DNA of 64,000 nt from Candidatus Aminicenantes bacterium. GTDB lineage: Bacteria; Acidobacteriota; Aminicenantia; Aminicenantales; UBA4085. The number at the start of each line of letters is the position of its first letter. Position 1 is the stretch's first letter. Below the pieces are notes generated by a model that ran no database searches, was not told where the DNA came from, and was given only the letters and a program-made list of their open reading frames with translations. The position numbers and the translations under genes were made by a program. The stretch is taken from positions 140,013-204,012 of the forward strand of contig CAWDOL010000015.1 of the NCBI GenBank assembly GCA_963803915.1. The letters are read 5' to 3'. Below are positions 13,253 to 59,682 of this stretch, piece by piece.

Positions 13253-14383
13253 CTATTTCGCCCCTAGCTCCTTGAGCAGCTCGCTGATCCGGCCGAGTGC
13301 CGGTTCCAGATATTCGTGAGGCTGGCCGTAGCTGATGCGGACGAAATGGTCCAGCCCGAAGTGGTCGCCGGGCACGATGAGCACCTTCTTCTCGTCGCGC
13401 AGCCGCTCGACAAGTCGGGTGGAATTAATGTCCAAGCCGTACTTCACGAAAGCGATGGCCGCGGCCTGGGGCGCCGCGCCGCTGAGGACGCCTCCCTGTT
13501 CCTTCATCCACTGTGCCAAAACAGGATAGCCGCGGCGGATATAGCCGCGGGTGCGTTGGATGATGCGGGGCCGGACGCGGGGGGACAGGGCATAGGCCGC
13601 CAGGTGGTTCGAGAGCATCGTGGCGCTCAGGGTCAGGTATTCGTGCCTGGCCCAGAGCTCATCGATGACGTCGGCCGGGCCGACGGCCCAGCCGATCCGC
13701 AGCCCCGGCAGGCCGTAGGCTTTGCTCAGGCTGCCCACGGCCAGGACCTTGTCGTACCTGCCGTAGAACGAAGGCGTCTGCTCTTCGGCCACCCGCTCGG
13801 CTCCGGCGTAAACTTCATCCGCCAATATCCAGGCTCCGGAGGGACGGGCGGCTTCGATGATCGCCTCCATCTCCTCGTTCTTGAGGATGTAGCCCGTCGG
13901 GTTGTTCGGGTTGCAGACCGCGATCAGCTTCGTTTTCGGGGTTACGGCCTTCTTGAGGCTTTCTAGGTCAAGGGCCCAGCCGTTCTTCTCGTCCAAGGAA
14001 AAAGTCCTGAGGTCGAGATTCAGGTTCTTGGCCAATCCCCAAATCTGCATGTAGTTCGGCAGCATGACGGCGGCCTGGTCCCCGCCTGCGAGCAGACCCC
14101 AGAGGATGTCGTAGTTGGCTTCGATGGCGCCTACAGTGACAAGGACGTTCTCCGGGCCCGCCCCTGGATAAAGGGCCGCGATGTTGCCTCTCAGCTCCGG
14201 GATGCCGTTGGCATGGGCGTAGTCCATCTCCAGAGCTTGCAGGCCGGCCAGCCCCTCCGGATCGTCCTGATAGAGCTCTTTCAGGGTCATCGGATGAACC
14301 CCGCTCTCCGAAAGGTTGTAGTCGACCGCCTTCTCGAACTTCGACATCATCCGTTCCATCACGAAAGGCTGAAACTGGGGCAT
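13253..14383 (-). CDS. Aminotransferase, class I/II (PLP-dependent)
   Basis: NPNNPTG and SLSKAYGLPGLRIGW (PLP-lysine context). The ATG at 14383 is preceded by AGGAGG. Its stop lies 3 nt from the OCD start, so the two are a likely operon. Confidence 0.85.
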   Translation of the reverse strand: MPQFQPFVMERMMSKFEKAVDYNLSESGVHPMTLKELYQDDPEGLAGLQALEMDYAHANGIPELRGNIAALYPGAGPENVLVTVGAIEANYDILWGLLAGGDQAAVMLPNYMQIWGLAKNLNLDLRTFSLDEKNGWALDLESLKKAVTPKTKLIAVCNPNNPTGYILKNEEMEAIIEAARPSGAWILADEVYAGAERVAEEQTPSFYGRYDKVLAVGSLSKAYGLPGLRIGWAVGPADVIDELWARHEYLTLSATMLSNHLAAYALSPRVRPRIIQRTRGYIRRGYPVLAQWMKEQGGVLSGAAPQAAAIAFVKYGLDINSTRLVERLRDEKKVLIVPGDHFGLDHFVRISYGQPHEYLEPALGRISELLKELGAK

Positions 14384-14405
14384 GGGCGCCTCCTTTGACG
14401 GGGGG

Positions 14406-14434
14406 AGGATAGCCCGGGCGAGGAGCAGGGTCAA
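14406..14434 (-). promoter_or_regulatory. Sigma70-like promoter candidate for the aminotransferase-OCD operon
   Basis: The minus strand reads TTGACC, a 17-nt spacer, then TATCCT, ending about 20 nt upstream of the RBS/ATG at 14383. Confidence 0.3.
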
Positions 14435-14508
14435 GAGCCCGCGCTGGGGCGGCGCCCCGAAACGCGAACCAAGGATATTCCTCTCTCTCTGTCGAATGAT
14501 TGAACTCC

Positions 14509-14530
14509 CTAAAAAAGCCCGAGGGCTTCC
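14509..14530 (-). terminator. Orphan intrinsic-terminator-like hairpin plus U-tract (minus strand)
   Basis: The minus strand reads GGGAAGCC-CTCG-GGCTT-TTTTAG: a 5-7 bp stem followed by a T-run. It sits inside a divergent intergenic region with no upstream minus-strand gene to terminate. Confidence 0.3.
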
Positions 14531-14572
14531 CGACGCCGCGATCCGGAAGCATCCGGGAAGGAAAGGAAGGCG

Positions 14573-16672
14573 ATGATGCGCGAGAAAGGGCTGTGGCTGT
14601 GTCTGACGGGGATTCTGTCTCTTTCGCTAGCCTCAGGAAACGGGGCCTCTCCATCCCCTGAAGGCGAGGCGAAGCCGAGCTACCCGATCGTCGATACCGG
14701 AGTCGCGACATTTTACAGCAACGATGCCGTCATCCCCGCGCCGGCCGAGGGGGCTCCTTTCTACGGACAGGATGCGACCTATCAGGGCAACGAGCCTTCC
14801 TATACCGATAACGGAGACGGGACCATCACCGATAACGTGACGGGCTTGATGTGGCAGAAGGATATGGGGAGTAAAATGTCGTTCGATGAAGCGGCGGCGG
14901 TCGCGCCGTCGTTGAGATTGGGCGGTTACGCCGATTGGCGGATTCCCTCGATTAAGGAGCTCTATTCCCTCATCCTGTTCACGGGGCAATCGAAAGGGGA
15001 ATCCGCCGTCAAGGCGTTCATCGATGAGTCCTATTTCATTCAGCCTTTGGGAGACACGGCCCAGGGCGAACGCCCGATTGATGCCCAGACATGGTCAGCG
15101 ACGAAGTACGTCGGAACGACCATGAGGGGGAATGAGACGATATTCGGGGTCAATTTCGTAGACGGGCGTATCAAAGGCTACCCCAAGATCGGAAATAGGA
15201 CCGGCCGCTCATCCGCCAATAGAATGTTCTTCCGCATGGTTAGGGGGAATCCCGCCTACGGACGCAATGATTTCGTGGATAACAACGATGGGACGATATC
15301 CGACAGGGCCACCGGTTTGATGTGGCAGAAGGCGGATGACGGTACGGCCCGCGATTGGGAAAGCTCGCTTGCGTATGCCGAGAATCTGGTCTTGGCGGGC
15401 CATTCCGACTGGCGTTTGCCCGATGCGAAAGAGCTCCAGAGCATTGTCGATTACACCCGGGCCCCGGACGTGACGCATTCGGCCGCCATTCATCCGCTGT
15501 TTCAGACCACTTCCATCGCGGACCCGGACGGGGTGGCCGGGCAATATCCGTTCTTTTGGACCGGCACGACCCATCTCGATGGGCCGAACCCCTATGCCTC
15601 GGCGGTCTACATCGCTTTCGGCAAAGCGCTGGGCAAGATGCGGGGGTTGCTGATGGACATGCACGGCGCGGGCGCGCAGCGGAGCGATCCGAAATCGGGA
15701 AACAGGGAGAGCTATCCCCAGTTCTTCGGCCCGCAGGGCGATCTTCGGTCTGTCTATAATTATGTCCGCTGCGTCAGGAATATCACGAAGGGGGGTCCCG
15801 TCGCTCGGATCCGCGAGGGCGCGCCGATGCGCGTGGTCACGCTCGGCACCGGCACGCCCCAGTTCAATGCGGCTCGGTCCGGACCGTCCGCGCTGATTCG
15901 TCAGGGGGACGGGAATTATCTCGTCGACATGGGCAACGGCACGCAAGCCGGACTCAGCCGCCTCGGTCTGAGCCCCCGGCAGCTTTCCGCGCTGATCATC
16001 ACGCATCACCATCTGGACCACAACGAGGAGTTCATCCCTCTTTTCATCGGGATCTGTCTGGCCGGCGGTGCGGCGGAAATCATCGGACCGCCGGGCACGA
16101 AGGCTCTCGCGGCGTTCATCTTGGAATTCTACGCCGAGGACATCCGCTACCGGCTCCGGCGTCAGGGCGGGGGTGCCTCGAAGATCCCGTCGCCCCCCGT
16201 GCGGGAGATCAAGGGCGGCGAAGCCTTCGTTCTGGGTTCGATCATGGTCACGACGGCCAAGGTCAACCATGCCCTCCCCACCGTCGCTTACCGCTTCGAC
16301 CGGGACGGCCGGTCGATCGTCGTTTCGGGTGACCTGACCTATTCGGAAAGCCTGGTCGACTTGGCCCGGGCCGCCGACGTGCTGGTCATGGACTCCGGCG
16401 GATCCCCGGTGCGGGCCGGCGCTCCGGGAAGGGGGCCCATCGGAAACCGGCCGGGGGCCGGAGCGGGCGGGGGCGATTTAAGGGCGCATGCCTCTCTGCA
16501 GGAAGTGGGCGAGATGGCCCAAAAAGCCGGGGTGAAGAAGCTGGTGTTAACCCACATCGGTCCGGGAACGATCGATGAGGCGGCGACCCAAAAAGCCCTG
16601 GGACGATTCTATTCGGGGGAAGTCGTCGTCGGCCATGACGGACTGGAAGTCACTCCCTCGCGGGTCCGGTAA
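14573..16672 (+). CDS. Fusion protein: two DUF1566 (Lcl C-terminal-like) modules + MBL-fold metallo-hydrolase
   Basis: 699 aa with a signal peptide. Two DUF1566 modules: DNGDGTITDNVTGLMWQKD..DWRIPSIKEL and NNDGTISDRATGLMWQKAD..DWRLPDAKEL. The C-terminal half has the MBL motif IITHHHLDHNEEF and ..VLTHIGPG. Confidence 0.75.
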   Translation: MMREKGLWLCLTGILSLSLASGNGASPSPEGEAKPSYPIVDTGVATFYSNDAVIPAPAEGAPFYGQDATYQGNEPSYTDNGDGTITDNVTGLMWQKDMGSKMSFDEAAAVAPSLRLGGYADWRIPSIKELYSLILFTGQSKGESAVKAFIDESYFIQPLGDTAQGERPIDAQTWSATKYVGTTMRGNETIFGVNFVDGRIKGYPKIGNRTGRSSANRMFFRMVRGNPAYGRNDFVDNNDGTISDRATGLMWQKADDGTARDWESSLAYAENLVLAGHSDWRLPDAKELQSIVDYTRAPDVTHSAAIHPLFQTTSIADPDGVAGQYPFFWTGTTHLDGPNPYASAVYIAFGKALGKMRGLLMDMHGAGAQRSDPKSGNRESYPQFFGPQGDLRSVYNYVRCVRNITKGGPVARIREGAPMRVVTLGTGTPQFNAARSGPSALIRQGDGNYLVDMGNGTQAGLSRLGLSPRQLSALIITHHHLDHNEEFIPLFIGICLAGGAAEIIGPPGTKALAAFILEFYAEDIRYRLRRQGGGASKIPSPPVREIKGGEAFVLGSIMVTTAKVNHALPTVAYRFDRDGRSIVVSGDLTYSESLVDLARAADVLVMDSGGSPVRAGAPGRGPIGNRPGAGAGGGDLRAHASLQEVGEMAQKAGVKKLVLTHIGPGTIDEAATQKALGRFYSGEVVVGHDGLEVTPSRVR

Positions 16673-16675
16673 GCC

Positions 16676-16770
16676 TCCGGGCTTTCCTGTTTCCCAGCCG
16701 CATCAGCAGCCCCATGGCGACGAGGACCAGGGCGACGATGAAATCGACTCGGAAGGCGGAGCCGTGATGC
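16676..16770 (-). pseudogene. Relic of the C-terminal helix of an SSS-transporter paralog
   Basis: Minus-strand translation ..AFRVDFIVALVLVAMGLLMRLGNRKARR.. compares with ..AFRIDFAVALALVAMGLLMRMGKKKTRRG* at 32201-32290. The nt similarity is obvious (CCGCATCAGCAGCCCCATGGCGAC is shared). Confidence 0.45.
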
Positions 16771-16915
16771 CACGGCCGGCAACGTCATCCGCTTCGAGAC
16801 GCGCTGAGGGGCGGAGTCTGGTTTCCCCGCCGGGCCGTTCCGGATGGGGGACGCCTCTGCCTTCGCAACGGTCCCGAGCCTGAGCCGGTCGCGCTCCGAA
16901 ATCGCGGCGGGCCGC

Positions 16916-20928: not shown

Positions 20929-22065
20929 ATGTTTATGGAAATATCCCTGCTCGTTTATCTCGTCGGCAACGTGTACCTCCTGCGGCGCGCCTGGAAGGCC
21001 CTGGCCGGGATCGGTATCTGGCGTCAGGTCATTCTGGCCGCGTACCTCATCTTCTCTTACAGCTATTTCCTGATGCATCGGCTGGAGGGAGGGACGCATA
21101 CGCAGTTCAAGGAGTTCATCTGTGCCTGCGGCTCCGTGTACATCGGCATGCTCCTCTATTTCGCGCTGTTCACGCTCATCGCCGACCTGATCCTTTTCAT
21201 CGACCGGCGCAAGGCGATCCTGCCGAAGTCCCTGCGGGCCGACCGGCGGAAGGCCGGGCATTGGGCCTTTGGGCTTGTCGTGGGCCTTACGTTCGTTCTT
21301 CTTCTGGGCGGCTCGATCTATGCCCGCCATGTCCGCGTCCATCCGATGGGCATCACGATCGAGAAGTCCGGCGGCGAGCTGAAGAGCCTGAACCTTGTCG
21401 CCCTGGCCGACATCCATGTCGGGCCGTTCCTGCGGGTGTCCCGGCTGGAGAAGATCATCGCCAAGGTCAATGCCCTCAACCCCGACGTCGTCCTCCTGCT
21501 GGGCGACATCATGAACGAGGAGACGATCGAGCCGGAGAGGGAGCGCTTGCCGGCGGCCTTGGCCGAAATCCGGGCCAAGTACGGCGTCTTCACCTGCTTC
21601 GGCCAGCACGAATACTTCCTCGGCAAGAATTACAGCCTGGCCCTTTTCAAGGCTGCCAATATCCGCGTCTTGGAGGACGAGGCCGTTCTGGTGGCGGATT
21701 CCTTTTATCTCGTCGGACGGAGCGGCCACGGCTATTTCTCCAATTCCCGGCGCCGTCCGCCGCTCGGGCATATCCTCAAGGATGCGGATATAAGGCGGCC
21801 GGTCATCTTGTTGGATCATACCCCGATCGGCCTGAGCGAAGCCGCCGATGCCGGCGTCGATCTGCAGCTATCGGGGCATACGCATGCCGGGCAAGTCTTC
21901 CCGGCCACCTTGGTCAACAGCTTTCTCTACGAGATCGGGAACGGCTACGGCCGGAGGGGAAAAACCCAGTACTACGTCTCGGCGGGTGTCGGCGTCTGGA
22001 GCCCGCCGGCCCGGATCGGGTCCACGGCCGAGATCGCCCAACTGAAGATCACGCTTGAAAAATAA
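20929..22065 (+). CDS. Membrane-anchored metallophosphoesterase (calcineurin-like)
   Basis: 378 aa with about 4 N-terminal TM helices. Motifs LADIHVG, LLGDIMNEE, GQHEY, LLDHTP and LSGHTHAGQ. Confidence 0.85.
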   Translation: MFMEISLLVYLVGNVYLLRRAWKALAGIGIWRQVILAAYLIFSYSYFLMHRLEGGTHTQFKEFICACGSVYIGMLLYFALFTLIADLILFIDRRKAILPKSLRADRRKAGHWAFGLVVGLTFVLLLGGSIYARHVRVHPMGITIEKSGGELKSLNLVALADIHVGPFLRVSRLEKIIAKVNALNPDVVLLLGDIMNEETIEPERERLPAALAEIRAKYGVFTCFGQHEYFLGKNYSLALFKAANIRVLEDEAVLVADSFYLVGRSGHGYFSNSRRRPPLGHILKDADIRRPVILLDHTPIGLSEAADAGVDLQLSGHTHAGQVFPATLVNSFLYEIGNGYGRRGKTQYYVSAGVGVWSPPARIGSTAEIAQLKITLEK

Positions 22066-22330
22066 GTTGGCCTAAACGCTCCCCTTAATCCGCCCGGAAG
22101 CCGGCGATCCCGGGAATGGTCTTCGGCCCCTTCTTCATGTCATTCATACGGGATCGGCTACTTCTTGTAGTCCGGGGGAAGGAAAAGCCGGTCGTCCAGG
22201 GGGTTCCCCCCGAAGCGGGGCCCCCTTCCCAATGTTCGCTTATGGTCAATCCCTCCGTTCCGCAAGGAGAGACGCCTACATGCAGTCCTCCCCGAGTCAT
22301 AAGGGAGGCGGGAAGGGTTGATAATATAAA

Positions 22331-22561
22331 TCAGCTCTCGATCCCTTTGTCGTTCACGGCTTTGACGGTCACGACCAGGGATTCGCCCTTCCTGAACTGA
22401 AAGCCCGACAGAGCTGCCAGCGGTTCCTTGACCGTGACCGTCGCGGCGCCGGGAGAGGAACCGGGCCCATAGGTCGCGATATAAGAGACGATTTCCTTCG
22501 CCGGGCTCGGTGACCAGGCTGCTTCGGCCGTCCCCTTTTCGTATATTTCGCAAATTGACAT
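22331..22561 (-). pseudogene. Terminal fibronectin-type-III-like domain, 5'-truncated gene fragment
   Basis: ..AAWSPSPAKEIVSYIATYGPG..VTVKEPLAALSGFQFRKGESLVVTVKAVNDKGIES* fits an Fn3 pattern (W.P....I.SY.I.Y....L.G...G....V.V.AVN..G.S). The frame closes exactly where repeat DR1 and the low-GC island begin. Confidence 0.4.
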
Positions 22562-22599
22562 TGCCGAGCCGCCGGAAGTATATTCCCGGTGTGGTCAAA
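22552..22599 (+). promoter_or_regulatory. Promoter-like direct repeat DR1 (TTGACA-N18-TATATT)
   Basis: AAATTGACA..TATATTCCCGG.GTGG.CAAA matches 25198-25245 at 39 of 48 positions. TTGACA is at 22555-22560 and TATATT at 22579-22584. Weaker similarity continues to about 22625. Confidence 0.35.
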
Positions 22600-22639
22600 C
22601 GGAGGGATTCATCGGTCGGTGCGGGAATTCGCCATGCCG

Positions 22640-22761
22640 TGGAAAAAACAAATTCCTATATTCAATATTCACCCGGCTGGGGTGATGTTTACTGGATTGA
22701 TGCGAAAATAATTGAGGAATTAAGAATTTCCATCGGTTCCGCTCAGGAACCAGGAAGTTAA
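22640..22761 (+). pseudogene. C-terminal fragment of a third PD40-propeller paralog
   Basis: ..QYSPGWGDVYWIDAKIIEELRIS.. compares with ..EPGNGRSDIFWVDAKIIEELKITN* and ..SPGNGNGDIYWIDARVIEELRMKN* of the next two genes. No N-terminal part is present. Confidence 0.5.
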
Positions 22762-22790
22762 GAATTCAGAGTTAAAAGAGGATGTGATAA

Positions 22791-23795
22791 ATGAAGAAAT
22801 TCTTTATCATTTTAACAATATTTGTAAATATAAATTCTTTTGTGTCTGCACAGGATTTGCCCGCACTTAAAGGGCCATATCTTGGTCAGAAACCGGCCGG
22901 ATTAATGCCGGAAATTTTTGCTCCCGGAATATTATCAACTATAGCTCATGAACACAGCAGTCCTGAATTCTCACCCGATGGAAAGGAAGTGTACTATTCC
23001 GTAATATTTCCGGGTGTACAGACTGAAGTAATAATGTTTCGGAAAATAATTGATGGGCAATGGTCAGAACCTGAAGTCGCTCCGTTTTCCGGGCAGCACA
23101 GAGATGGAAGTCCTGTTTACTCTAAGGATGGTTTAAAATTATTTTTCTATTCAATGAGGCCTTATCCGGGGACTTTGGAACCGGAACAAATGGATTTATG
23201 GTTTGTAGAGAAAAAACAAAACAGTTGGGGGAAACCACAACATTTGGGTGATTTGATAAATTCAAACAAAAAAGAGATGATGTTATCGATTGCAAAAAAC
23301 GGGAATCTGTATTTTACCGTGATAGAAAAGGGGAACCACATTTTATATAAATCTGTATATGCAGATGGGAAATATACGGCGGCTCAGAGCCTCGGGAAAT
23401 TTATCGGAGAAAATTTTGCCGAATGGTGTCCATTTATTGCTCCTGATGAAAGTTATCTGATTTTTTCTGCATATGAACTAAAAGGGGATGAGAATAACGA
23501 CCTTTATATTGCTTTTAGGAATCCGGATGGAAGCTGGAAAAAACCGATTAATATGGGACCTTCAATTAATTCTGAATTTCAGGAACAATTCCCTAAGGTC
23601 AGCCCGGATGGGAAATATCTCTTCTTTACAAGCAACAGGTTCAGGGTAGAAAGGAAAATCAATGAGGAATTCTTTTACAAAATGCCTCTTACATATAAGA
23701 AAATACAGGAAATTATGAACGAACCCGGGAACGGCAGAAGCGATATATTTTGGGTAGATGCGAAGATAATAGAGGAATTAAAAATTACGAATTGA
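22791..23795 (+). CDS. PD40/TolB-like beta-propeller repeat protein, secreted
   Basis: 334 aa with a signal peptide. PD40-type motifs SPDGKEVYYS, SKDGLKLFFYS, APDESYLIFSA and SPDGKYLFFTSNR. AT-rich codon usage. Confidence 0.7.
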   Translation: MKKFFIILTIFVNINSFVSAQDLPALKGPYLGQKPAGLMPEIFAPGILSTIAHEHSSPEFSPDGKEVYYSVIFPGVQTEVIMFRKIIDGQWSEPEVAPFSGQHRDGSPVYSKDGLKLFFYSMRPYPGTLEPEQMDLWFVEKKQNSWGKPQHLGDLINSNKKEMMLSIAKNGNLYFTVIEKGNHILYKSVYADGKYTAAQSLGKFIGENFAEWCPFIAPDESYLIFSAYELKGDENNDLYIAFRNPDGSWKKPINMGPSINSEFQEQFPKVSPDGKYLFFTSNRFRVERKINEEFFYKMPLTYKKIQEIMNEPGNGRSDIFWVDAKIIEELKITN

Positions 23796-23919
23796 GAGTC
23801 AGGAGTTAAGAGTAATATTTCAATATATTATTTTTCGGTTTTGCGTGCAGTATTTCTTTTTACCATAAAATCACGGAGAAAGCAAAGATAATTTAGATCA
23901 AGAGTTAGAAGAATAAGGT

Positions 23920-24915
23920 ATGGAAATGAAGAATTTAATAATCTTATTATTCAGTTTTGTTAATATTGGCATTTTTGTTAATGCACAAAATATTCCAATC
24001 CTTAAAGGTCCATATCTTGGTCAGAAACCGCCCGGAATGATACCGGAAATATTTGCTCCGGGTATAATATCGACCGGATATTATGAAAGAAGTATTGTCT
24101 TTTCCCCTACACTTGATGAAATATTTTATCAGTTAAGAGGTTTGAGATTTACGACATTTATTCTTACTTCGAAAATACAGAATGGAATATGGAAGCAGCC
24201 GGAAGTTGCATTATTTTCCGGATATCCTGAATATTGTGATGATTGTCCGTTTTTTAATTATGAAGGGAATACTTTGCTTTTTGTATCAAAGAGACCAATC
24301 CCCGGTACTCAGGTGATTCAAAAAGAATCGGATATTTGGTTTCTCAGGAAAGACAGTAATGGATGGGGACAACCGGAATATTCAGGGAGTATCTTGAATT
24401 CCTCAGGTGATGATGATTATCCGACAGTTTCAAAAATGAACAATATTTATTTTTGTTCAAACAGAGACGGTAATTATGACATTTATGTATCTGAATATTC
24501 AGAATCTGGATATTCTAAACCCGTTCGAATTAATGCTCCCATAAGCACTGAAAAATTTGAAGGACACCCTTTTATTGCTGCCGATGAAAGCTATCTTATC
24601 TTTTCTTCTGACCGCCCGGGTGAACTTGGACAGGCTGATTTATATATCAGCTTTAGAAAGAAGGATAATTCCTGGTCGGAACCTATAAACATGGGAGATA
24701 AAATTAACACTCCTTTTCACGAGGCAGCCCCTTACGTATCTCCCGATGGGAAATATTTATTCTTTTGCAGTTTCCGCCCAAATTATGGAGAGTATTATAG
24801 TAAGAAGTTGGAATATAATGATATAAAAAAACACTTAAATAGTCCAGGAAATGGAAACGGAGATATTTATTGGATTGATGCAAGAGTAATTGAAGAATTA
24901 AGAATGAAAAATTGA
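23920..24915 (+). CDS. PD40/TolB-like beta-propeller repeat protein, secreted (paralog)
   Basis: 331 aa, collinear with the previous gene (ILKGPYLGQKPPGMIPEIFAPGI.., AADESYLIFSSDR, SPDGKYLFFCS). The start could also be the ATG at 23926. Confidence 0.7.
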   Translation: MEMKNLIILLFSFVNIGIFVNAQNIPILKGPYLGQKPPGMIPEIFAPGIISTGYYERSIVFSPTLDEIFYQLRGLRFTTFILTSKIQNGIWKQPEVALFSGYPEYCDDCPFFNYEGNTLLFVSKRPIPGTQVIQKESDIWFLRKDSNGWGQPEYSGSILNSSGDDDYPTVSKMNNIYFCSNRDGNYDIYVSEYSESGYSKPVRINAPISTEKFEGHPFIAADESYLIFSSDRPGELGQADLYISFRKKDNSWSEPINMGDKINTPFHEAAPYVSPDGKYLFFCSFRPNYGEYYSKKLEYNDIKKHLNSPGNGNGDIYWIDARVIEELRMKN

Positions 24916-24983
24916 GAATAAAAGGTAAAAGAATGAAAATGTATATTCATAACTTTATGATTATTAAGGGAGATAAGGTGTGG

Positions 24984-25077
24984 CGGGAGGATGTAGGAAT
25001 CGAACCTACCCGGCCCCTTCGTCAGAAGCCGTGCCGGATTAAAGAGTCCGGAGGGCCAGCAGGCCCCATGCCCTCCC
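24984..25077 (-). pseudogene. Pseudo-tRNA-Sec (degenerate full-length copy of selC)
   Basis: 94 nt, collinear with selC at 53199-53292. The anticodon loop is 8 nt (CTCTTTAA instead of CTTCAAA, plus-strand 25039-25046). The D-stem 3' strand has lost a base (GGCCC vs GGCCCC). Confidence 0.7.
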
Positions 25078-25197
25078 GTTGAATTGGCAGTCGGCTAAAA
25101 ACCGATCGTATTCTATCCGGCAGGATGCTCCAAGCTAAAAGGGGGAGCGAGGTCATCGGAGAGATGACGGAAAGGGGTGTGAAGAATTAGCTGGCTG

Positions 25198-25245
25198 AAA
25201 TTGACACCGTCGAGCGGCAGGGATTATATTCCCGGCGTGGCCAAA
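25198..25245 (+). promoter_or_regulatory. Promoter-like direct repeat DR2 (TTGACA-N17/18-TATATT)
   Basis: Copy of DR1. TTGACA is at 25201-25206 and TATATT at 25225-25230. Lies upstream of a gene relic and esterase copy 1. Confidence 0.35.
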
Positions 25246-25261
25246 GGGGCATCGGCGTGAT

Positions 25262-25387
25262 GGAGTCTCCGGTGTTCAGTCCGGCGGGCGTTCGCACGGG
25301 CACGTTCTATCCGTCTGGCGCAAGGAATCGGACGGGAAGTGGCGTATCGTGTTCGACTCGGGCTGCCCGCCCTGTCAGGGGCAGTAG
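25262..25387 (+). pseudogene. Possible relic of a DUF4440/SnoaL-like gene 3' end
   Basis: Translation ..GHVLSVWRKESDGKWRIVFDSGCPPCQGQ* resembles the typical C-terminus (..VW.K..DGKW.I..D) of NTF2-like DUF4440 proteins. No credible N-terminal part. Confidence 0.25.
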
Positions 25388-25423
25388 GCCGCGGCCCCCT
25401 TCCGGCTATTGTGAGCTTGCAAA

Positions 25424-27253
25424 ATGAAAGAAAAAACGAGTGTCTTCATTCCCACACGGAAAGAGGAATATGGAAAAAGACGAGTCCGTTTAATATCGGG
25501 TTTTCTCCTATCAGGGCTTCTGTTCGGATCGCTGCTCCAGGCCCAAGTCCGGCCGGCTCATGTTTTCGACCACAACATGGTGTTGCAGCGCGACAAACCG
25601 GTCAGAATCTGGGGCTGGGCGGCACCGGATGAGAAGGTAAAAGTCGAATTCGGAGGACAAGTTAAGTCAACGGTTGCCAACCCGCAGGGTGAATGGTGCG
25701 CCTGGCTGGATGCCATGAGCGCAAACGCTCAACCGTCGGATATGAGAATTTCAGGCCGGGCGAGCTCCGTGCGGTTCACAAATGTTCTGGTCGGAGATGT
25801 CTGGGTTCTGGGAGGTCAAAGCAATATGGAATTTGACCTGGCCCGGATCTTCCACGGTGACGCGGAAATTCTATCGGCCCATTTCCCATTGATTCGCCTG
25901 ATGACCGTACCCAGCTCGGCCGATCTGAAGCCCCAAAAAGACTTTGAACGCATCAATGAGTACGATAGCTGGCTCGACCGGTATGACAAAAAGGGATTCT
26001 GGTTTGTATGTTCGCCGGAAACGGTTCCCACGTTCTCGGGAATAGGCTATGTCTTCGGCAGGCGCCTCCATCTGGCCGCTCAAGTTCCCATCGGCTTAGT
26101 GGACGTATCATTGGGCGGCACCACCGTCGAGGCCTGGCTTTCTCCGCAGACGTTAAGCAAAATGCCCGAAAACAGCTCCTTGCTGAAGCAATGGAATGAA
26201 AAAGCGGCCCATTATGATCCGGATAAGGATCTCAAGGAAAAAATCAAGAACTGGGAGACTCGAAGCGCGGAGAGGCTAAAAAAGGGCCTGGAGACGGAGC
26301 CGAAACCCGTTGCGCCTTCTCCCCATCCCGCTTTTGACCGAAATTTCCCCGGTTCATCCTATACGGGGATGGTCTCCGTGATAGCCGGGCTGGCCATAAA
26401 AGGAGTCGTGTTTCATCAGGGATACAATAATGCGCTTGAAGATTCCCGTCCCAAGCAGTATGCCTCCAACTTCAAGGCGCTGATCAACGATTGGAGGGAA
26501 ACGTTCAAGGACGCGAATTTGCCCTTTGGCATCATCGAGTTCAGCGCCGGCGGTGAACCGCAAACGCTCGATAATTACGAGGTCAGGATGCTGGATCCGT
26601 CACCGTTTGTTCGGGAGGCACAGTTTAACGCCTTTCGGACTGTCCCCCTTACCGGATTTGTTTGCTCCTATGACCAGCAGGTCAACTGGTACCATCCCCA
26701 GAAAAAGATGGAAGCCGCCGAAAGGATGGCGCGTTGGGCTTTGTCGACGCAGTATGGTTTCAACCTTAAATGGGAGCCGGCCGTTTGCACTAATGTTGAA
26801 AGACGAAAAGATAAAATCATCATCACCTTCGATAAGGAGGTCAAGGCTTCCGATGACCGTCCTTTCGAAGGCTTCTCAACGGCGGGAAGCGATGGCCGTT
26901 TCTTTCCCGCCCAAGCGGCCTATGTGACGACAAAAAATGAAAAAGGGCAGCCGGTATTCGACAAGAAAAAGATCGAAGTGTGGACTAGCCTATGTGCCGA
27001 TCCGGTTGAGGTCCGTTATGCCTGGGCCCGAAATCCGTTGGGAAATCTGGTTAGCTTGGAGTGCCCGATCATTCCCGTGCCGCCGTTTCGAACCGATGAT
27101 TGGAGCTATCCCGAGGCTCCTTATCAAGCGGATGAGTACGCGGCTCATAGAATTCGAATGAAAGAAATGCGAAGGCAGGCGGAAGAGCTGGCACGGCTCA
27201 GGATCCTTCGGGAGGCCGAACAAAAATTGAACGAGAGAGAAGAATTGAAATGA
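25424..27253 (+). CDS. Sialate O-acetylesterase family (SASA/DUF303, SGNH-like), copy 1
   Basis: 609 aa with a signal peptide. Hallmark VGDVWVLGGQSNMEFDL, then GGTTVEAW and VVFHQGYNNA. Near-identical paralog at 57849-59654. Confidence 0.85.
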   Translation: MKEKTSVFIPTRKEEYGKRRVRLISGFLLSGLLFGSLLQAQVRPAHVFDHNMVLQRDKPVRIWGWAAPDEKVKVEFGGQVKSTVANPQGEWCAWLDAMSANAQPSDMRISGRASSVRFTNVLVGDVWVLGGQSNMEFDLARIFHGDAEILSAHFPLIRLMTVPSSADLKPQKDFERINEYDSWLDRYDKKGFWFVCSPETVPTFSGIGYVFGRRLHLAAQVPIGLVDVSLGGTTVEAWLSPQTLSKMPENSSLLKQWNEKAAHYDPDKDLKEKIKNWETRSAERLKKGLETEPKPVAPSPHPAFDRNFPGSSYTGMVSVIAGLAIKGVVFHQGYNNALEDSRPKQYASNFKALINDWRETFKDANLPFGIIEFSAGGEPQTLDNYEVRMLDPSPFVREAQFNAFRTVPLTGFVCSYDQQVNWYHPQKKMEAAERMARWALSTQYGFNLKWEPAVCTNVERRKDKIIITFDKEVKASDDRPFEGFSTAGSDGRFFPAQAAYVTTKNEKGQPVFDKKKIEVWTSLCADPVEVRYAWARNPLGNLVSLECPIIPVPPFRTDDWSYPEAPYQADEYAAHRIRMKEMRRQAEELARLRILREAEQKLNEREELK

Positions 27254-27282
27254 ACGCGTGAGCAACGACGTTCGTCTCTCGT

Positions 27283-30153
27283 TCATAGGATGTTATCCAG
27301 CGTCTCCCAATTGAGCGAGTGAGCTGGCTCAAAGCGCTCCGAGCCGGCGTAGCGCAGCAGGCTGTGCATCAGCTGGCGCGCCTCGGGATGGTCCTGAAGC
27401 GCCGGCAGGTCGCTGGCGCAGACCAGCAGCTTGCCCCGGCCGACTTTGGCCTCGAAGAGCAGGCCCAGCTTGTGATTGCGGGCGAAGTTGTCGATGACAT
27501 GAATGATCGGGCGATAATCCGCCGGGGTTTCGTCCAAGATGATCGGCCGCGAGTTCTTGACGATGGGCCACCACTGCCAGTTGCTGTGAAACTCCGTCGG
27601 AAACTCCGCCAGCGCGGGATGGCTCGGATCGCAGAGGAACCCCTGCGTACCCGGCGCCGGCTCGATGTTTTGCGCCAGGGCGGCTTTCGCGAACATGGGC
27701 CAGCACCAAAAGTCGGTGGCAAACGCGCCGCCCACGGTGTGCTTGGGATCGTTCGTCCGGGAAAACAACAGGACCTTTCCGCCCTCGGATAGGAATGTCC
27801 GCGTCGTCGCGTCGAGGCGATTCGTCACCAGAACTTCCTTGAGCGTGCTGGTATCAACCTTGGGCGGAAAGACCCAGAGGTCATAGCTGTTGCGGCAATC
27901 TGTTCCCTCGATGGCGATGGTCAGCTTGACCTGGCGCGGGGCCTTGACCCGGTTCAGCGCAGCTTGTATCGGCCCGACGGAACCAAGCCCTCCCTCCTTG
28001 ATCGTCAGCGGTCCCAGCGCTCCCTCCGCGATCGGCGAGCCTTCGCCATCGCGGAGGGTCCAGTTCACACGGGCTTCGTGGAGGTCGGCCGGGCCATAGT
28101 GGGCAACCCTGACCTCGCCGGTGAAGGTTTCGTCCGTGGTCCAGGCGTATTTCTCCAGCAAGAGGAGCGGCACGGTTTCGCTGCAAAACTCCCGCCATTT
28201 GTCCGGCCTGGTGATTCCCTTCGACTCCATGAACACGTTCAGCATCCCCACCAGCGCCGTTCCCTGCCCGGGGAAATCCATCAAGTCCAGCCAGTGAAAA
28301 CCGCTTAATCCGGGCGTGCGCAACGCGGCCTCGAGGTCCTCGCGCTGGCAGATGGCGGCCAAGGCGCCGGAGGCCCGCAGGAAGTCGTGGGAGAGATCCA
28401 GCATGCCGGCGTCCCGCAGGCGCTGCTGAAAGATCTCCAGGTTCCGCGCCTTGAGCACGCCCGTGTATTTCGGGATCTCGCGAAAGTCCGGGGCCATCGC
28501 GAATTCGGCGATTTCGTGGCTGATGACCGGCACCGGCACGTCCTGGATCGATTCGTCGTAATTCACCAGGGACGAAGGCGGACGGCTGTCGATGTGGCCG
28601 CCTTGGGGGAAATCGCCGGCGAAGAACGCGCCGCGCACGGGCAGGTTCTTTCCGGTCTTGCCCGTCACCCAGAAATCGTCGCCTTCCGCGTAGCTCGGAT
28701 CCCAATGGTTGTTGTTCGCCCCTTGGGCGTAGAGTCGGCGCGGATCGCGCTTTTGAAAGCGGGCCACCAGCTCGAACATGGCCGGCTTGCGCTCGAGCTC
28801 GTTGCCGAGCGTGAATAGGACGAAGGACGGGTGATTGCCGAAATGCCGGAAGATCAATTCGGCCTCGCGCAGCGCGTAGTCGTACAGCGAGGCGTTGGGG
28901 TCGGCGCCCGGCACGTCAAGATAGTCGATGTTCCGCTTGGCCGCCTCCGTGCTCTCGGGCGCCTGGAACGCGCTGCGCTTGTTGGGCAGCTCGACCTGGA
29001 AATACATCCCCAGCTCATCCGCCGCCGCGAAGGCGGCCTCGGGGGGGCACCAGGAATGAAAGCGGACGTGGTTGAGCCCCCAATCCTTGAGAATCCCCAA
29101 AACCCGCAGCCAGCCGGCCTTGTCCATGGGCGGATAGCCGGTCAGTGGATAGTTGGCGCAGTCCAGCCGCCCGCGCAGAAAGATCGTCCGCCCGTTGATC
29201 GCAAGCCGCTGCCTGTCCCGCTTGAAATCGCGCAGCCCGAAGCGGACGGCGCGTTGATCGGTAAAGGACTGCCCGCCGGCGACGGCGGACAACCGCAATT
29301 CCAGCCCCAGCATGGCCGGCTGAAACTCATCCCACAGCGGCGCCGCTTCGCCCGGCTGATAGATGAACTCGACCCTGTTGCGCGCTTCCGGCGCCTGCAC
29401 GACGATGGATTGTGCGGCGAAGTCCGCCGGCCTGACGACATTGGCGCTCCGGCATTGCAGCGCCAGCTCTCCGGTCGCCGGCTGCCCCGTCACATTCCCC
29501 ACCACCACCCGGACGCGCGCCTGCTTGCCGGCCGCGTCGGGATAGACCTGCACGTCCTCGATCCAGACCGGGTCCGTGGCGCGGAGCTCGAGCCGGCCGA
29601 TGATGCCGTTCCAATTGGTCTGGGTCCGCTCGTCCACCGCGTGGGAGGGCCCGACCGGCGGCAGCTTGGCGTTGTCCACCAGCACGGTTATCGTGTGGCG
29701 ACCGAGCCTGAGAGCGCGCGTAAGGTCAAAAACCTGCGGGGCGCTGAGCGTGTCGTCGGCGCCGCAATCCCCGTCATCCACCCATACCCGCGTGCTCTTG
29801 GTGCGCTCCAGCAGCAGGGTGATCCGCTTGCCTTGCCAAGCCTCGGGAATGACCACCTCGCGCTGATACCAGGCGGGGCCTTTCCAGTACCAGACGCGGG
29901 AGAGGCGATCTTCAGCCCGCTCGTCCTTGAGCTCCCCCTTGTGATTGGTGTCGGTCGTGCCGGGCAGGGTCACCGAGTCATCCAGCTTCTCGGCGAACCA
30001 CCTCATCGCGACGCCGGTGTTGTGCGGATCCAGACGGAATTGCCAGGCGCCGGCCAGGGGAATGGTGTTCGCCGGGGGAAGAGCCGCTGGGCCGTGGGCG
30101 GCTGCCAAGCTCAGGTACGCGATGGACACAAGCCAGGCCGTTATCTTGGGCAT
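27283..30153 (-). CDS. Glycoside hydrolase family 2-like enzyme (sugar-binding + TIM-barrel), secreted
   Basis: The ATG at 30153 gives signal peptide MPKITAWLVSIAYLSLAAAHG. Motifs: WYWKGPAWYQREVVIPEAWQGKRITLLLERTKSTRVWVDD and LNHVRFHSWCPPEAAFAAADELGMYFQVELPN. The 100 codons upstream in the ORF track look non-coding. Confidence 0.75.
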   Translation of the reverse strand: MPKITAWLVSIAYLSLAAAHGPAALPPANTIPLAGAWQFRLDPHNTGVAMRWFAEKLDDSVTLPGTTDTNHKGELKDERAEDRLSRVWYWKGPAWYQREVVIPEAWQGKRITLLLERTKSTRVWVDDGDCGADDTLSAPQVFDLTRALRLGRHTITVLVDNAKLPPVGPSHAVDERTQTNWNGIIGRLELRATDPVWIEDVQVYPDAAGKQARVRVVVGNVTGQPATGELALQCRSANVVRPADFAAQSIVVQAPEARNRVEFIYQPGEAAPLWDEFQPAMLGLELRLSAVAGGQSFTDQRAVRFGLRDFKRDRQRLAINGRTIFLRGRLDCANYPLTGYPPMDKAGWLRVLGILKDWGLNHVRFHSWCPPEAAFAAADELGMYFQVELPNKRSAFQAPESTEAAKRNIDYLDVPGADPNASLYDYALREAELIFRHFGNHPSFVLFTLGNELERKPAMFELVARFQKRDPRRLYAQGANNNHWDPSYAEGDDFWVTGKTGKNLPVRGAFFAGDFPQGGHIDSRPPSSLVNYDESIQDVPVPVISHEIAEFAMAPDFREIPKYTGVLKARNLEIFQQRLRDAGMLDLSHDFLRASGALAAICQREDLEAALRTPGLSGFHWLDLMDFPGQGTALVGMLNVFMESKGITRPDKWREFCSETVPLLLLEKYAWTTDETFTGEVRVAHYGPADLHEARVNWTLRDGEGSPIAEGALGPLTIKEGGLGSVGPIQAALNRVKAPRQVKLTIAIEGTDCRNSYDLWVFPPKVDTSTLKEVLVTNRLDATTRTFLSEGGKVLLFSRTNDPKHTVGGAFATDFWCWPMFAKAALAQNIEPAPGTQGFLCDPSHPALAEFPTEFHSNWQWWPIVKNSRPIILDETPADYRPIIHVIDNFARNHKLGLLFEAKVGRGKLLVCASDLPALQDHPEARQLMHSLLRYAGSERFEPAHSLNWETLDNIL

Positions 30154-30298
30154 CGTCTTGGATCTTCCGTGTGCTTCGGAGCTTTCATCGGCTAAGCCTC
30201 CCTGCAGAGAGATTCTGCCAGAAAACTCACATGGTGTCTGTATCCGTTTTGCGGGATAAGGTCCGCGTCTGTTTATCCGGATGTTCGAGTTCGCCCGC

Positions 30299-30327
30299 TT
30301 GACTTCCATCCACCGCTCCCATAAATT
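30299..30327 (+). promoter_or_regulatory. Sigma70-like promoter candidate for the 30367 gene
   Basis: TTGACT (30299-30304), a 17-nt spacer, then TAAATT (30322-30327), about 40 nt upstream of the ATG. Confidence 0.35.
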
Positions 30328-30366
30328 GAAAAGGCTCGCCATTGCGAAGAGAAGAGGGATCGGATC

Positions 30367-31593
30367 ATGAAGGTAGACAAGCTTTTCTCGGCCCTTCTCT
30401 CGGCCGGCCTTGCCGCGCTGCTCGTTCTTTCCCTTTCTCCAGGCCTGAACGGACAATCCGGGAGCGACGCCTCACGGCTGCTCGGCAAATGGTCCGGACG
30501 AACGGAGTTCGGCCAGCTCGTCCTTGAGTTCCGTTCCGCCACCCAGCTCGTCTTCGAGGGCGACGTCGTGAGCTATAAGCTGCTCCCCGGAATCATCCGC
30601 ATTGAGGATGAGGACGGAACGACTGATTATCGCTACGCCTTCCGCGGCGACACGCTCGTCGTATCCTTCCCGGAGGGTATCCAGGTTGAGTTCACCAGAC
30701 TCGGTGCCCCTCCGAAACCCCTGCCTGCCCCGCTCGCGGGAACAAAGCCCGGCCGGTCTGAGCCGACGCCGTCGGCCGCAGGTAGGGGAGCGGAAATCGG
30801 CGCCCCGGGCATCGCCTCCTCGCCGCAGATCGGGGCCGGAGAAGCAGGGGATGCCGGATGGGGATTCAAGTTCCAGCCGCCTGCCGGCTGGAAGTTCCAG
30901 AGCTCGCCAGAAGGCATCTTCCTGGGCCACGACACGGTTGCCGGGATGATCCTCGTCCTCCCTCACACGGCCGCGAACATCCAAGCCGTCCGGGAGCAGA
31001 TGATGCTGGGGCTCCACGAAGAGGGCCTGGACCTCACGCCGGCCGGGGGCTTGCGCCCTGCGGGGGCATCGGCCCTGGCCGGGGACTATGAAGGCGTCGT
31101 CCAGGGCGGGCAGGCCAAAGCCCTCGGTCTCGGGACTCTATCGCCGTTCGGCGGCGGCGCTTTCATTGTCGCGCTGACCACACCCGAGAAGTTTGGCCGG
31201 GAGCTGCCCGCGGCAGCCGAGACAATCGCCCGAAACATGAGGTACTTTCGCGTCGAAGCCTCCGAGGTCATGAGCCACTTCGCCGGCACTTGGGTTACGA
31301 TGACCAAAAGCACGGAGACGCGCTTCACCCTGACGCCCGCGGGTGAGTTCTACTCCGGCTACGAAGCGAGCTATTCAGGACGGTTCGACGATGGCGGCGC
31401 GTGGGGGACGGCAAGCAACAGCAGCGATCGCGGGCGCTGGACCGTTCGCGGCGACAAGCGGCAGGGCCAGATCATCCTCACCTATTCGAACGGCCGTCAA
31501 GTTCAGATTCCGTACAGAGTCCAAGTCGAGAGGGGGGAGACATTCTGGAACGAGTACTGGTTCAACGGAGATCTTTATGGAAGACGGCGATGA
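30367..31593 (+). CDS. Hypothetical secreted protein
   Basis: 408-aa ORF with a signal peptide (LSAGLAALLVLSLSPGLNG) and coding-like composition. No family motif recognised. Confidence 0.5.
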   Translation: MKVDKLFSALLSAGLAALLVLSLSPGLNGQSGSDASRLLGKWSGRTEFGQLVLEFRSATQLVFEGDVVSYKLLPGIIRIEDEDGTTDYRYAFRGDTLVVSFPEGIQVEFTRLGAPPKPLPAPLAGTKPGRSEPTPSAAGRGAEIGAPGIASSPQIGAGEAGDAGWGFKFQPPAGWKFQSSPEGIFLGHDTVAGMILVLPHTAANIQAVREQMMLGLHEEGLDLTPAGGLRPAGASALAGDYEGVVQGGQAKALGLGTLSPFGGGAFIVALTTPEKFGRELPAAAETIARNMRYFRVEASEVMSHFAGTWVTMTKSTETRFTLTPAGEFYSGYEASYSGRFDDGGAWGTASNSSDRGRWTVRGDKRQGQIILTYSNGRQVQIPYRVQVERGETFWNEYWFNGDLYGRRR

Positions 31594-31645
31594 GAGAAGG
31601 CTGCTTTGCGCTCTTCCGTTGCAGCGGCACTGCCAAAGGCAAGTG

Positions 31646-32154
31646 ATGCCGAGACGCCGTCCCGCCCCGTCTCTCGTCGCCGCCCAGGCCGTCAAGGTCC
31701 AGTTTGGCCTCGATGCCAACGCCACGGCGAGGGCCTTGCGGGCCGAGGGCTACTTGGGCGGGATGATCGCCACGGGGGTGTCGTCGTGGCCCTGGCCCAG
31801 CATTACCGGCCGGACCCGGACGGCGTCGTCAACGCCCTGAAGGCCGCCGGCTATTCCCTTGACGAATTCGGCTCGCCTCTCATCCAAGCCTTCGGCCTGG
31901 CCTTGAACGACTTTGCCGCTCTCATGAAGCGGACCCTTTACTCCGTGGGCGCGATGGTCCGCGTCATGGTCCAACGGATGAGCAAGCCGATCGACGCGGC
32001 CGCGGCGCTTGTCGTCGGATACGCGCTCAGGACCGCGCGCGAGGTGACCGCCGCCCTCAAAGAAGGCGGCTACCAGCGGACGGCCCTCGGTGCGGTCTTC
32101 GGCCTGACGTTTGTCCGGATCGGCCAGCTCCTGGCGTCGCTGGGCATCGGGTGA
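31646..32154 (+). pseudogene. Hypothetical helical-repeat protein, frame broken in a G-run at 31774-31778
   Basis: A recurring unit appears in two frames: ARALRAEGY (31343 ORF frame), then NALKAAGYSLDEF and TAALKEGGYQRTAL (31606 ORF frame). Start is uncertain (31577 or 31646). Confidence 0.3.
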
Positions 32155-32200: not shown

Positions 32201-33951
32201 TCAGCCGCGGCGGGTCTTCTTTTTCCCCATCCGCATCAGCAGCCCCATGGCGACCAGGGCCAGGGCCACGGCGAAGTCGATGCGGAAGGCGGGTGCATCC
32301 TTGTAGAGTGTCAGGACGAGCAGCGAGACGGCCGCGACCAGCGCCCCGAAGGCCGCCAGCATGAACCCGATGACCCCGAAGGGCGAAAGGGCATCGCTCT
32401 TGGCGCCCTCGAAAAGGAAGGGCGTCTTCAGATCGGCGAAGAAAGCCGCGACCCGTTGCTTCTCGCCCTCCGGCGTCGGGCGCGAGGCCGTCCCGATGAC
32501 CATCCCGAGGATCGTGGCCGTGACGCTCACGACCGTGGCCGCGGAGTTCCAGCCGCTGCGGAGCCAGAACTCGAGCCTCGGGTCGGCTTTCATCGCCTCG
32601 GCGTAGACCTGGACCAGGATAGAAGTTCGTCAGGACCAGGAGCACGCCCGTGACGCAGCCCGCCGTCAGCCCCCACAGCGTCCCCCGCGCGTTGAACTTT
32701 CTTGAACAGCAGGCCGAAGATCAGCGGAATCATGGTGGCCGGCCCGAAGGCGCTGAAGACGCGGAACATGATGTCCATCAGGTTGAAGCCCTGCAGGGCG
32801 TTGAACAGCATGGCCAGCAGCACCGTGACCGTCCCGATCAGCACCGTGAAGGCGCGGCCGGTGAAGATTTCCTGCTTCTCGGTCAGTCCGGGCTTGATCT
32901 TCCTCTTGAAGAAGTCGCGGGTCAGGACGCCGGACAGGGTGTTGAACTCCGAGCCCAGGGTGGACATCGTCGAGCTGATGACCGAGGCCAGGATCAGGCC
33001 CATCATCCCGACCGGCAGGATCTTCAGGCTGATCAGGGCGTAGACTTCCTTGGCGTTGGCGATCCCGGGCAGCAGCACCCGGGCCGCGATGCCCGGCAGG
33101 AAGAAGATCGGCGGCATGACGAACATCAGGCCGGCGATCAGGGCGATCATCTTGCCGATCTCCTTCTCGCTCTTCAGGGTGTTGTACTTCTGGACCAGGG
33201 CCCAGCTGGCGTTGTAGGAGAGGACGGTGACCAGGAAGACGGTGAAGACGAGGTAGGACCAGCCGTAGGGCTCCGGGGCCGGGTTGAAGAAGCCGGCCGG
33301 CAGCGCCCGGGCGAAATCCCCCAGGTTGCCGATCCTGCCCAGGGTCAGGATGAAGAGGGTGATGACCGAAACGGCCAGGATGGAGACGTTGACGAAGTCG
33401 GTGATCATGACCGTCATCTGGCCGCCCATGAACGAATACAGGATCATGACCAGCCCGATGATGGCCATGAAGGCGGTGATCGAGAGCCCCAGCCCGCGCA
33501 GGGCCACGGCGAAGATGATCGAGGTCGAGAGGATCTTCAGGGCGTTGTCGAACATGCGCAGCGGCAGGCCGGTCCAGACGAAGACCTGGTGGACGATCGG
33601 GCTGTAGCGGCGCTCCATGAAGCCGAGCGGGGTCATGACCCGGGCCCGCCGCCAGCGGCGGGCCGTGAGCAGCCCGCCCAGCACGATGCAGAGCGGGCTG
33701 ATCCACAGGATGACGACGGCCACGATGCCGTACTTGTAGGCGATCTCGTTGTAGATGACGAAGAGCAGGGCGCTGAACGAGGCCTTGTAGAACGACGTCC
33801 CGGCCAGCCACCAGGGCATGACGTTGCCGGCCGCGAAGTAGTCCTTGGCTTTCCGGATGTAGCGGGCCGAGGCCAGGCCGACGCCGACGACGACGATGAA
33901 ATAGGAGAGGATGACCAGGTAGTCGGGAAGCCGGATGCCCTGGTCGTCCAT
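32201..33951 (-). pseudogene. Sodium:solute symporter (SSS) family transporter, two frame breaks near the 3' end
   Basis: Start MDDQGIRLPDYLVILSYFIVVVGVGL.. with about 13 TM segments. The frame shifts at about 32697 (AAG-AAA-G-TTC) and about 32617 (TTC-TAT-C-CTG). Joining the three frames gives ..LFKKFNARGTLWGLTAGCVTGVLLVLTNFYLVQVYAEAMKADPRLEFW.. Confidence 0.8.
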
Positions 33952-53198: not shown

Positions 53199-53292
53199 CG
53201 GGAGGATGTAGGAATCGAACCTACCCGGCCCCTTCGTCAGAAGCCGCGCCGGATTTGAAGTCCGGAGGGGCCACCAGGCCCCGTGCCCTCCC
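53199..53292 (-). tRNA. selC: tRNA-Sec (anticodon UCA)
   Basis: Reverse complement: GGGAGGGC-AC-GGGGCC-TGGT-GGCCCC-T-CCGGA-CTTCAAA-TCCGG-(24-nt variable arm)-GTAGG-TTCGATT-CCTAC-ATCCTCCC-G. It has a long acceptor stem, a 6-bp D-stem with a 4-nt loop, a long extra arm and discriminator G. CCA is not encoded. Confidence 0.85.
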
Positions 53293-57692: not shown

Positions 57693-57725
57693 TTTGAAGT
57701 CTGGAGGGGCCACCGGGCCCCGTGC
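57693..57725 (-). pseudogene. Fragment of selC (anticodon loop to D-arm only)
   Basis: TTTGAAGTCTGGAGGGGCCACCGGGCCCCGTGC compares with TTTGAAGTCCGGAGGGGCCACCAGGCCCCGTGC at 53254-53286. The acceptor, variable and T arms are absent. Confidence 0.6.
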
Positions 57726-59654: not shown

Positions 59655-59682
59655 ACACAAGGCTTACGACGTCCGTCTCTTG

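Follow-up and report, generated by a model that had tools for sequence, protein, structure and literature searches.

The DNA considered here is a window of 64,000 nucleotides (nt) from Candidatus Aminicenantes bacterium (assembly GCA_963803915.1, contig CAWDOL010000015.1, positions 140,013 to 204,012), and its subject is an islet of about 2.3 kb with a low guanine-plus-cytosine (GC) content, which carries genes for secreted beta-propeller proteins of the PD40 family beside a degenerate copy of the gene for the selenocysteine tRNA (tRNA-Sec). The assembly is a metagenome-assembled genome (MAG) of 4.2 Mb in 30 contigs, 76% complete, and the window lies on its 378-kb contig C15. The islet is very probably a horizontally acquired piece of the tandem PD40 array of another bacterium. 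The closest relative of the host genome for comparison is the genome G007, of which L231 is a longer Joint Genome Institute (JGI) contig from the same organism. The features on which the argument rests are as follows, in window coordinates.

20929..22065, plus strand: host metallophosphoesterase gene, left anchor for the empty-site comparison, with a 77-78% identical ortholog in G007/L231.
22552..22602, plus strand: copy 1 of a host promoter/leader element, TTGACA-18-TATATT, reading into the islet (promoter motif 22555-22584).
22640..24967, no strand assigned: low-GC islet, very probably foreign DNA and a fragment of a donor tandem PD40 array, by its composition and its absence in the relative.
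22664..22761, plus strand: third PD40 gene, a 5'-truncated remnant with the last ~25 conserved codons and a drifted tail (direct repeat family D2).
22791..23795, plus strand: PD40_A, secreted TolB-like beta-propeller of 334 amino acids (aa), Pfam PF07676; GC 0.38, GC at third codon positions (GC3) 0.36.
23920..24915, plus strand: PD40_B, secreted TolB-like beta-propeller of 331 aa (probably 329 aa, with the start at 23926), Pfam PF07676; GC 0.35, GC3 0.28.
24981/24985..25077, minus strand: T1, degenerate full-length tRNA-Sec copy with encoded CCA (Rfam RF01852, 47.4 bits, cut-off 47).
25198..25248, plus strand: copy 2 of the promoter/leader element, before a SASA-type esterase gene at 25424-27253 (promoter motif 25201-25230).

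PD40_A and PD40_B match the Pfam PD40 family with 67.9 bits (E 6e-19) and 91.9 bits (E 2e-26), respectively, at a cut-off of 20.9, and their N-termini, judged by eye, look like Sec signal peptides. The recorded gene call for PD40_B (P0001) has 329 aa, and we infer that translation starts at the second ATG, at 23926. The truncated remnant (~22664-22761) retains the family C-terminal motif SPGWGDVYWIDAKIIEELR and is 72% identical to the C-terminus of PD40_B and 58% to that of PD40_A. The initial annotation had described two intact, collinear open reading frames (ORFs) of 334 and 331 aa with signal peptides, together with a third copy that had lost its 5' part and kept the conserved C-terminus; coordinates and Pfam matches confirm the intact pair, and the third copy is as described. 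The two intact proteins are 45% identical to each other. The sequences upstream of the two genes are alike (22768-22939 versus 23901-24074, 73% identity), a similarity that reflects old paralogy, not recent amplification.

An AlphaFold2 model of PD40_B is a beta-propeller with a confident core and poor termini (pLDDT 70.5, pTM 0.75), and its top 10 matches in the PDB are all TolB propellers (E 5e-9 to 2e-8, query-normalised TM-score 0.47-0.50, identity 14-16%). Neither protein has any Pfam match besides PD40, and the TolB N-terminal domain was not detected. Moreover, tolA, tolQ, tolR and pal are absent among the neighbours of these genes, which are other PD40 genes. PD40_A and PD40_B are not orthologs of the TolB of the Tol-Pal system. 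Both genes are probably functional, since they are intact and keep their apparent signal peptides, and since PD40_B retains all 68 of the 68 columns that are invariant in a 27-sequence alignment of its closest relatives.

The islet has a GC content of 35.6%, compared with a genome mean of 64.8%. In 200-nt windows, GC stands at 0.53-0.60 up to ~22700, at 0.26-0.43 over 22600-24999 and at 0.57-0.66 by 25000-25400. The tetranucleotide distance of the islet to the genome is 0.084, against 0.021 +/- 0.007 for 3000 random 2.3-kb genome windows, which places it ~9 standard deviations over their mean; only 0.1% of them reach its AT content or its distance, and these equally extreme windows are the genome's other low-GC segments. 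The codon usage deviates likewise, as the GC3 values of 0.36 and 0.28 lie below the range of 0.49-0.90 found in the host's own PD40 paralogs, which number at least 21 copies, some of them at intermediate GC (0.47-0.52). Both comparisons had been proposed as checks in the initial annotation, and its claim of an abrupt GC drop at both ends is borne out by the 200-nt windows and by the genome-wide tetranucleotide comparison.

The right end of the islet lies at ~24967/24968, where identity to the 3' flank of the relative's tRNA stops, and the left end falls in the interval from 22612, up to which there is homology to the promoter family, to 22665, the first position with homology to PD40. The islet had been reported to end 9 nt from a tRNA-Sec-like sequence; the adjacency is real, but comparison with the relative's flank puts the gap to the CCA of T1 at 13-17 nt. 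A good tRNA-Sec gene lies ~200 nt from the phosphoesterase gene of G007/L231, in convergent orientation, and the place of T1 next to the phosphoesterase gene is the place of tRNA-Sec in this relative. In the window, the two are convergent as well, with 2915 nt between the phosphoesterase gene and T1. The 3' flank of T1, GCCACACC, is identical to that of the relative and is followed by a difference of 1-4 nt, by CTCCC and then by AT-rich sequence. Thus, the empty site for which a comparison with related genomes had been suggested is present at the same locus in G007/L231, as the ~200-nt spacer. In addition, no homologs of the islet proteins above 42% identity were found in 40 relatives and none above 45% in 400 sampled genomes of the phylum, and the best identity among GTDB species representatives was 48-50%, in a Bacteroidetes and an Aminicenantes MAG.

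The relatives of the islet proteins lie elsewhere. A search that covered 5.8 billion proteins returned nearest proteins that are all metagenomic, with 58-70% identity to PD40_B and 57-62% to PD40_A; the closest of them lie in tandem arrays on contigs of 37-38% GC. The nearest relative of PD40_B (P0002; 70% identical in amino acids, 72% in nucleotides) lies on the contig L132 (2.6 kb, 37% GC), where at least four PD40 genes stand head-to-tail. A 60% identical ortholog of PD40_A is found on the 177-kb contig L146, where local GC is 38% and ~9 PD40 genes are interspersed with genes for an SGL-type lactonase, a peptidase M19, an ankyrin protein and a beta-lactamase-like protein. Contigs L148 and L228 have the same tandem PD40 layout, and on other contigs with PD40 arrays the neighbours include an S41 peptidase, an alpha/beta hydrolase and MacB-type transporters. 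The tetranucleotide distance of the islet to L132 and L146 is only 0.023-0.024, a distance typical of host windows from the host genome. The islet owes its tandem layout to the donor, in which such genes usually form arrays of 4 to ~9; the gene order of PD40_A followed by PD40_B was not seen in the sampled metagenome arrays.

A maximum-likelihood tree of 84 family members places PD40_A and PD40_B in separate clades with support of 100 and 99. Both clades consist of metagenome proteins only; the paralogs of the host and of its relative are placed elsewhere, those of the host with Aminicenantes MAGs. One member of the PD40_B clade, on a contig of 48% GC, is labelled Aminicenantes. Scans of genome contigs with PD40_B, with the protein P0125 and with the 27-sequence alignment gave nothing above 50% identity, and JGI metagenome contigs, scanned for exact matches to the left and right junctions, gave none. 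As a separate observation, one host paralog (C3:320841-321770, GC 0.47) groups tightly with a gene of a Chrysiogenales-labelled MAG (L175) and may represent an older or separate transfer in the PD40 family.

The possibility that a foreign low-GC fragment had been falsely joined into the host contig, raised from the start as the alternative to capture of an AT-rich cassette beside a tRNA-derived site, could draw on the source being a MAG of 76% completeness and on the abruptness of the shift at both ends. However, two independent per-run Logan assemblies contain the islet genes, on a 7487-bp contig (ERR12035938) and a 3339-bp contig (ERR15459710). These Logan contigs carry the genes for a MacB-like permease, PadR, a methyltransferase and the metallophosphoesterase, a 76-aa ORF, PD40_A and PD40_B, spaced exactly as in the window. 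The left junction and the junction of the islet with the tRNA are therefore reproduced, and the left junction lies in unique sequence. Both Logan contigs stop at about window position 25009, ~40 nt past the islet end and inside the genome-repeated 3' half of the tRNA, a place at which branching of a k-mer graph is unavoidable. Moreover, the two flanks are neighbours in the relative, so that two false joins would be needed inside a 200-nt spacer. A chimera is thus very improbable, contradicted as it is by two assemblies that run through both junctions into tRNA sequence, and the islet is real biology rather than an assembly error. Native ancestral genes of merely odd composition are even less credible: the host does have its numerous PD40 paralogs, some at intermediate GC, and a PD40_B-clade member with 58% identity (P0022) sits on a contig of 62% GC with host-like composition, but the closest relative lacks the islet at this site, identities in the relatives do not exceed 45%, and the GC3 of the islet genes is far under that of every host paralog. 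The initial annotation also read the repeated sequence at the junctions between units as the mark of a tandemly amplified cassette. The upstream similarity is real and there are three head-to-tail units; yet amplification in this genome does not stand, since the two proteins share less than half of their residues, fall in different clades and are each closer to relatives elsewhere (57-70%) than to the other copy. The chance that one acquired gene was recently amplified in place is close to nil, and the tree refutes it.

The preferred reading, acquisition from a donor array, is supported by the empty site, the lack of close homologs and the matches to low-GC tandem arrays, in line with the foreign AT-rich cassette suggested at the outset. 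According to this reading, a 2.3-kb piece would have been cut from a tandem array of secreted PD40 genes in a donor of low GC (~37%) and inserted into the ~200-nt spacer that, in a host of 65% GC, separated the tRNA-Sec gene from the metallophosphoesterase gene convergent with it. At the left end, a donor gene is cut through and adjoins the host promoter and leader; the truncated first copy marks the place of this cut. The host promoter now reads into the two intact genes, each of which retains a ribosome-binding region of its own upstream. The insertion is inferred to be recent enough to have left the composition unameliorated (GC3 of 0.28-0.36 versus ~0.8), and the islet adds two divergent members to the PD40 family of the host. 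As to the route, joining by one-sided homology or illegitimate recombination and joining by a decayed tRNA-targeting element would be about equally likely. The second route corresponds to a rival that is a variant of the same explanation in mechanism, in which the islet is the remnant of an integrase-bearing element that targeted tRNA-Sec and has lost its integrase, its far attachment (att) repeat and most of its cargo. This is a tentative possibility. The islet ends ~15 nt or less from the 3' end of a tRNA, a classic integration site, islands at tRNA-Sec (selC) are well known from enterobacteria (PMC6174562), three tRNA-Sec-derived sequences occur in the neighbourhood and another low-GC element of the genome, with integrases, adjoins tRNA-His. 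However, the islet ORFs are PD40 only and, of six matches to the integrase family PF00589 in the genome, none is on the 378-kb contig C15, serine recombinases and transposases not having been searched genome-wide; the absence of an integrase from the islet, as first described, holds. Nor does the left junction carry an att-like copy of the tRNA 3' end, its best match being 7 nt long and equalled in 57% of random host windows. Moreover, tyrosine integrases usually recombine within the tRNA, but here the crossover would fall outside it, and the left end is a truncated gene. Some points weigh against horizontal acquisition as set out here. The agreement with Logan is one of exact protein identity and gene spacing, not of contig DNA, and only this assembly joins the islet with the mutated 5' half of T1 and, farther on, with the esterase gene. 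The nearest homologs, at 57-70% identity, are unbinned, and the true donor is therefore unsampled. In addition, the closest relative is another species (77-78% protein identity in the flanking gene), which bounds the time of insertion loosely.

Other low-GC segments of the genome, with 35-44% GC and ~71 kb in all, are found on five further contigs:

C16:1-44750; C8:119101-122350; C4:1-4950, 13751-16850 and 27501-31850; C14:4201-6600; C26:2351-4300: other low-GC segments.

They include a 44-kb element beside tRNA-His in which a family search finds two integrases. The ORFs in these segments, read by eye, include an NHL-like propeller with membrane proteins, polysaccharide-type membrane proteins, a helicase/restriction-like pair and a frameshifted cysteine-peptidase-like gene. 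Given this amount of AT-rich DNA, with an integrase-bearing segment among it, its uptake is habitual in this genome, which supports the reading of the islet as acquired DNA.

The tRNA-Sec-derived sequences of the window comprise, besides T1:

53200..53292, minus strand: T2, functional-looking tRNA-Sec with anticodon UCA (Rfam 75 bits), 91.5% identical to T1.
57693..57725, minus strand: T3, 33-nt 5' fragment of tRNA-Sec, an old relic with a counterpart beside selB in L231 17793-17873.

T2 retains ~35 nt of the ancestral 3' flank. T1 and T2 differ by ~6 changes, about three of them in the anticodon loop, and their 3' halves are identical. The anticodon loop of T1, CUCUUUAA, has 8 nt, compared with CUUCAAA in T2, so that it holds no 7-nt loop with UCA, and ARAGORN assigns it a four-base anticodon, cttt. 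The other changes affect the base before the D stem and one D-loop base, and one C is deleted, after which a G-U pair is still possible. T1 folds as a full cloverleaf with five intact helices (-49.9 kcal/mol, z -3.5). Its 18-nt anticodon arm has 12 matches among other species representatives, about the chance estimate, and none of them is in a tRNA. At a permissive threshold, Rfam finds no known RNA other than T1 in 22000-25500 and none in the promoter/leader elements. The simplest reading is that T1 is a young pseudogene. The five intact helices, the encoded CCA and the few changes, which are in loops or preserve the structure, leave some room for a young, lineage-specific derivative of tRNA-Sec that continues to be made and charged, as an allo-tRNA-like missense decoder, a four-base (AAAG) decoder or a regulatory RNA, but such a role is very improbable.

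In distant relatives, selB is directly followed by tRNA-Sec. The G007-like relative has a 44-nt 5' fragment of tRNA-Sec beside selB, with ~6.5 kb of other genes before the complete tRNA. Since both species carry the same fragment, an old insertion seems to have split the selB-adjacent tRNA-Sec before they diverged, and the selB/tRNA-Sec neighbourhood is a rearrangement hot spot. T3 overlaps the start of a sulfatase gene; its counterpart in the relative lies 76 nt downstream of selB. The selB region of the window (minus strand, 61482-63408) consists of two overlapping ORFs in different frames, 62527-63408 for the N-terminal GTPase part and 61482-62555 for the C-terminal part, and the relative has a single gene of 645 aa. 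The split reflects either a frameshift or pseudogene, or an indel error in the assembly. A classic integrated island was also considered for the 28 kb from one tRNA-Sec copy to the other and was rejected for their host-like GC and the lack of an integrase; moreover, at least one gene inside them (30367-31593) has an ortholog near the phosphoesterase gene of the relative. This 408-aa gene lies 8 kb right of the phosphoesterase gene and inverted in this genome, while its ortholog (L231 4689-5897) is ~4 kb left of that gene, which points to an inversion or translocation around the tRNA-Sec locus.

The duplicated promoter-like element said to precede the islet was confirmed as TTGACA-18-TATATT, with 11 of 12 matches, in the copies at 22555-22584 and 25201-25230. 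Further copies occur at C6:~2452-2539 and C10:10332-10390, so that this is a small dispersed family of promoters close to the consensus. Its members share the leader start CCCGGyrTrGTCAArCG..GGGATTCrTCGG, and the C6 copy precedes an ORF starting MDRRAFLKSSL, which to our reading resembles a twin-arginine signal. The SASA-type carbohydrate esterase gene is itself duplicated (25447-27289 and 57848-59690, 92% nucleotide identity, both ~53% GC), and behind its second copy lie short remnants (59690-59813) of the GH2-like gene located after the first. The duplicate, ~32.4 kb apart, looks like a decayed segmental duplication. Short intergenic repeats of 83-84% identity occur at 6073-6207 and 7919-8052, at 16678-16759 and 32211-32292, and at 7725-7794 and 12346-12415.

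The islet is an ordinary, well-supported small case of horizontal transfer at a tRNA locus. The sharp GC break is biology, and the contig can therefore be trusted at this stretch. The case also illustrates, cleanly and on a small scale, gene flow in an uncultivated Aminicenantes-like lineage of high GC, in which a fragment of a propeller array moved between genomes of very different composition and into a repeatedly remodelled tRNA-Sec neighbourhood. Secreted PD40 propellers form a very large family, with more than 6000 relatives returned and tandem arrays in many uncultured phyla; a limited search of the literature on Aminicenantes and PD40 found no paper on the tandem PD40 propeller family. 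As the arrays adjoin peptidases, hydrolases and ABC exporters, the islet proteins are probably periplasmic or extracellular propellers with a binding or scaffold role alongside array-adjacent peptidases and hydrolases, and the secreted PD40 modules could serve in the scavenging of peptides or polymers.

Among known systems, the C-terminal six-bladed beta-propeller of TolB (PDB 1c5k, 2w8b) shares with the islet proteins PD40 repeats above the Pfam cut-off and is their best fold match. The islet proteins differ from it in being propeller-only, with ~330 aa and the low identity of their fold matches, and in belonging to multi-copy tandem arrays outside any tol-pal operon. The metagenome PD40 arrays (L132, L146, L148 and L228; uncultured Aminicenantes, Acidobacteriota, Bacteroidota, KSB1 and Zixibacteria) resemble the islet in family, gene size, head-to-tail layout and the C-terminal motif GDIYW[IV]DA[KR]IIEEL, and L132 and L146 also in composition, whereas the islet is a 2.3-gene fragment in a 65% GC genome. 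Mukai et al. (2017, PMC5389517) report allo-tRNAs and selC* tRNAs from Acidobacteria and describe some of them as pseudogenes with links to mobile DNA. T1, a tRNA-Sec derivative, shares with these tRNA-Sec-like tRNAs of changed anticodon its G73, its long variable arm and an anticodon loop without UCA; however, allo-tRNAs have a 12-bp acceptor branch of the 8/4 or 9/3 type, whereas the thermodynamic fold of T1 has a 7-bp acceptor and a 5-bp T stem, as in T2. Finally, the selC-, pheV- and pheU-linked islands of enterobacteria are tRNA-associated islands (PMC6174562, PMC11537424). The islet differs from them in having neither integrase nor att repeats, in being only 2.3 kb long, in its insertion just outside the tRNA and in the degenerate state of the adjoining tRNA, a duplicate whose working copy is 28 kb away; in common with them, it has a foreign composition, lies directly downstream of a tRNA whose sequence is duplicated nearby and is absent in relatives.

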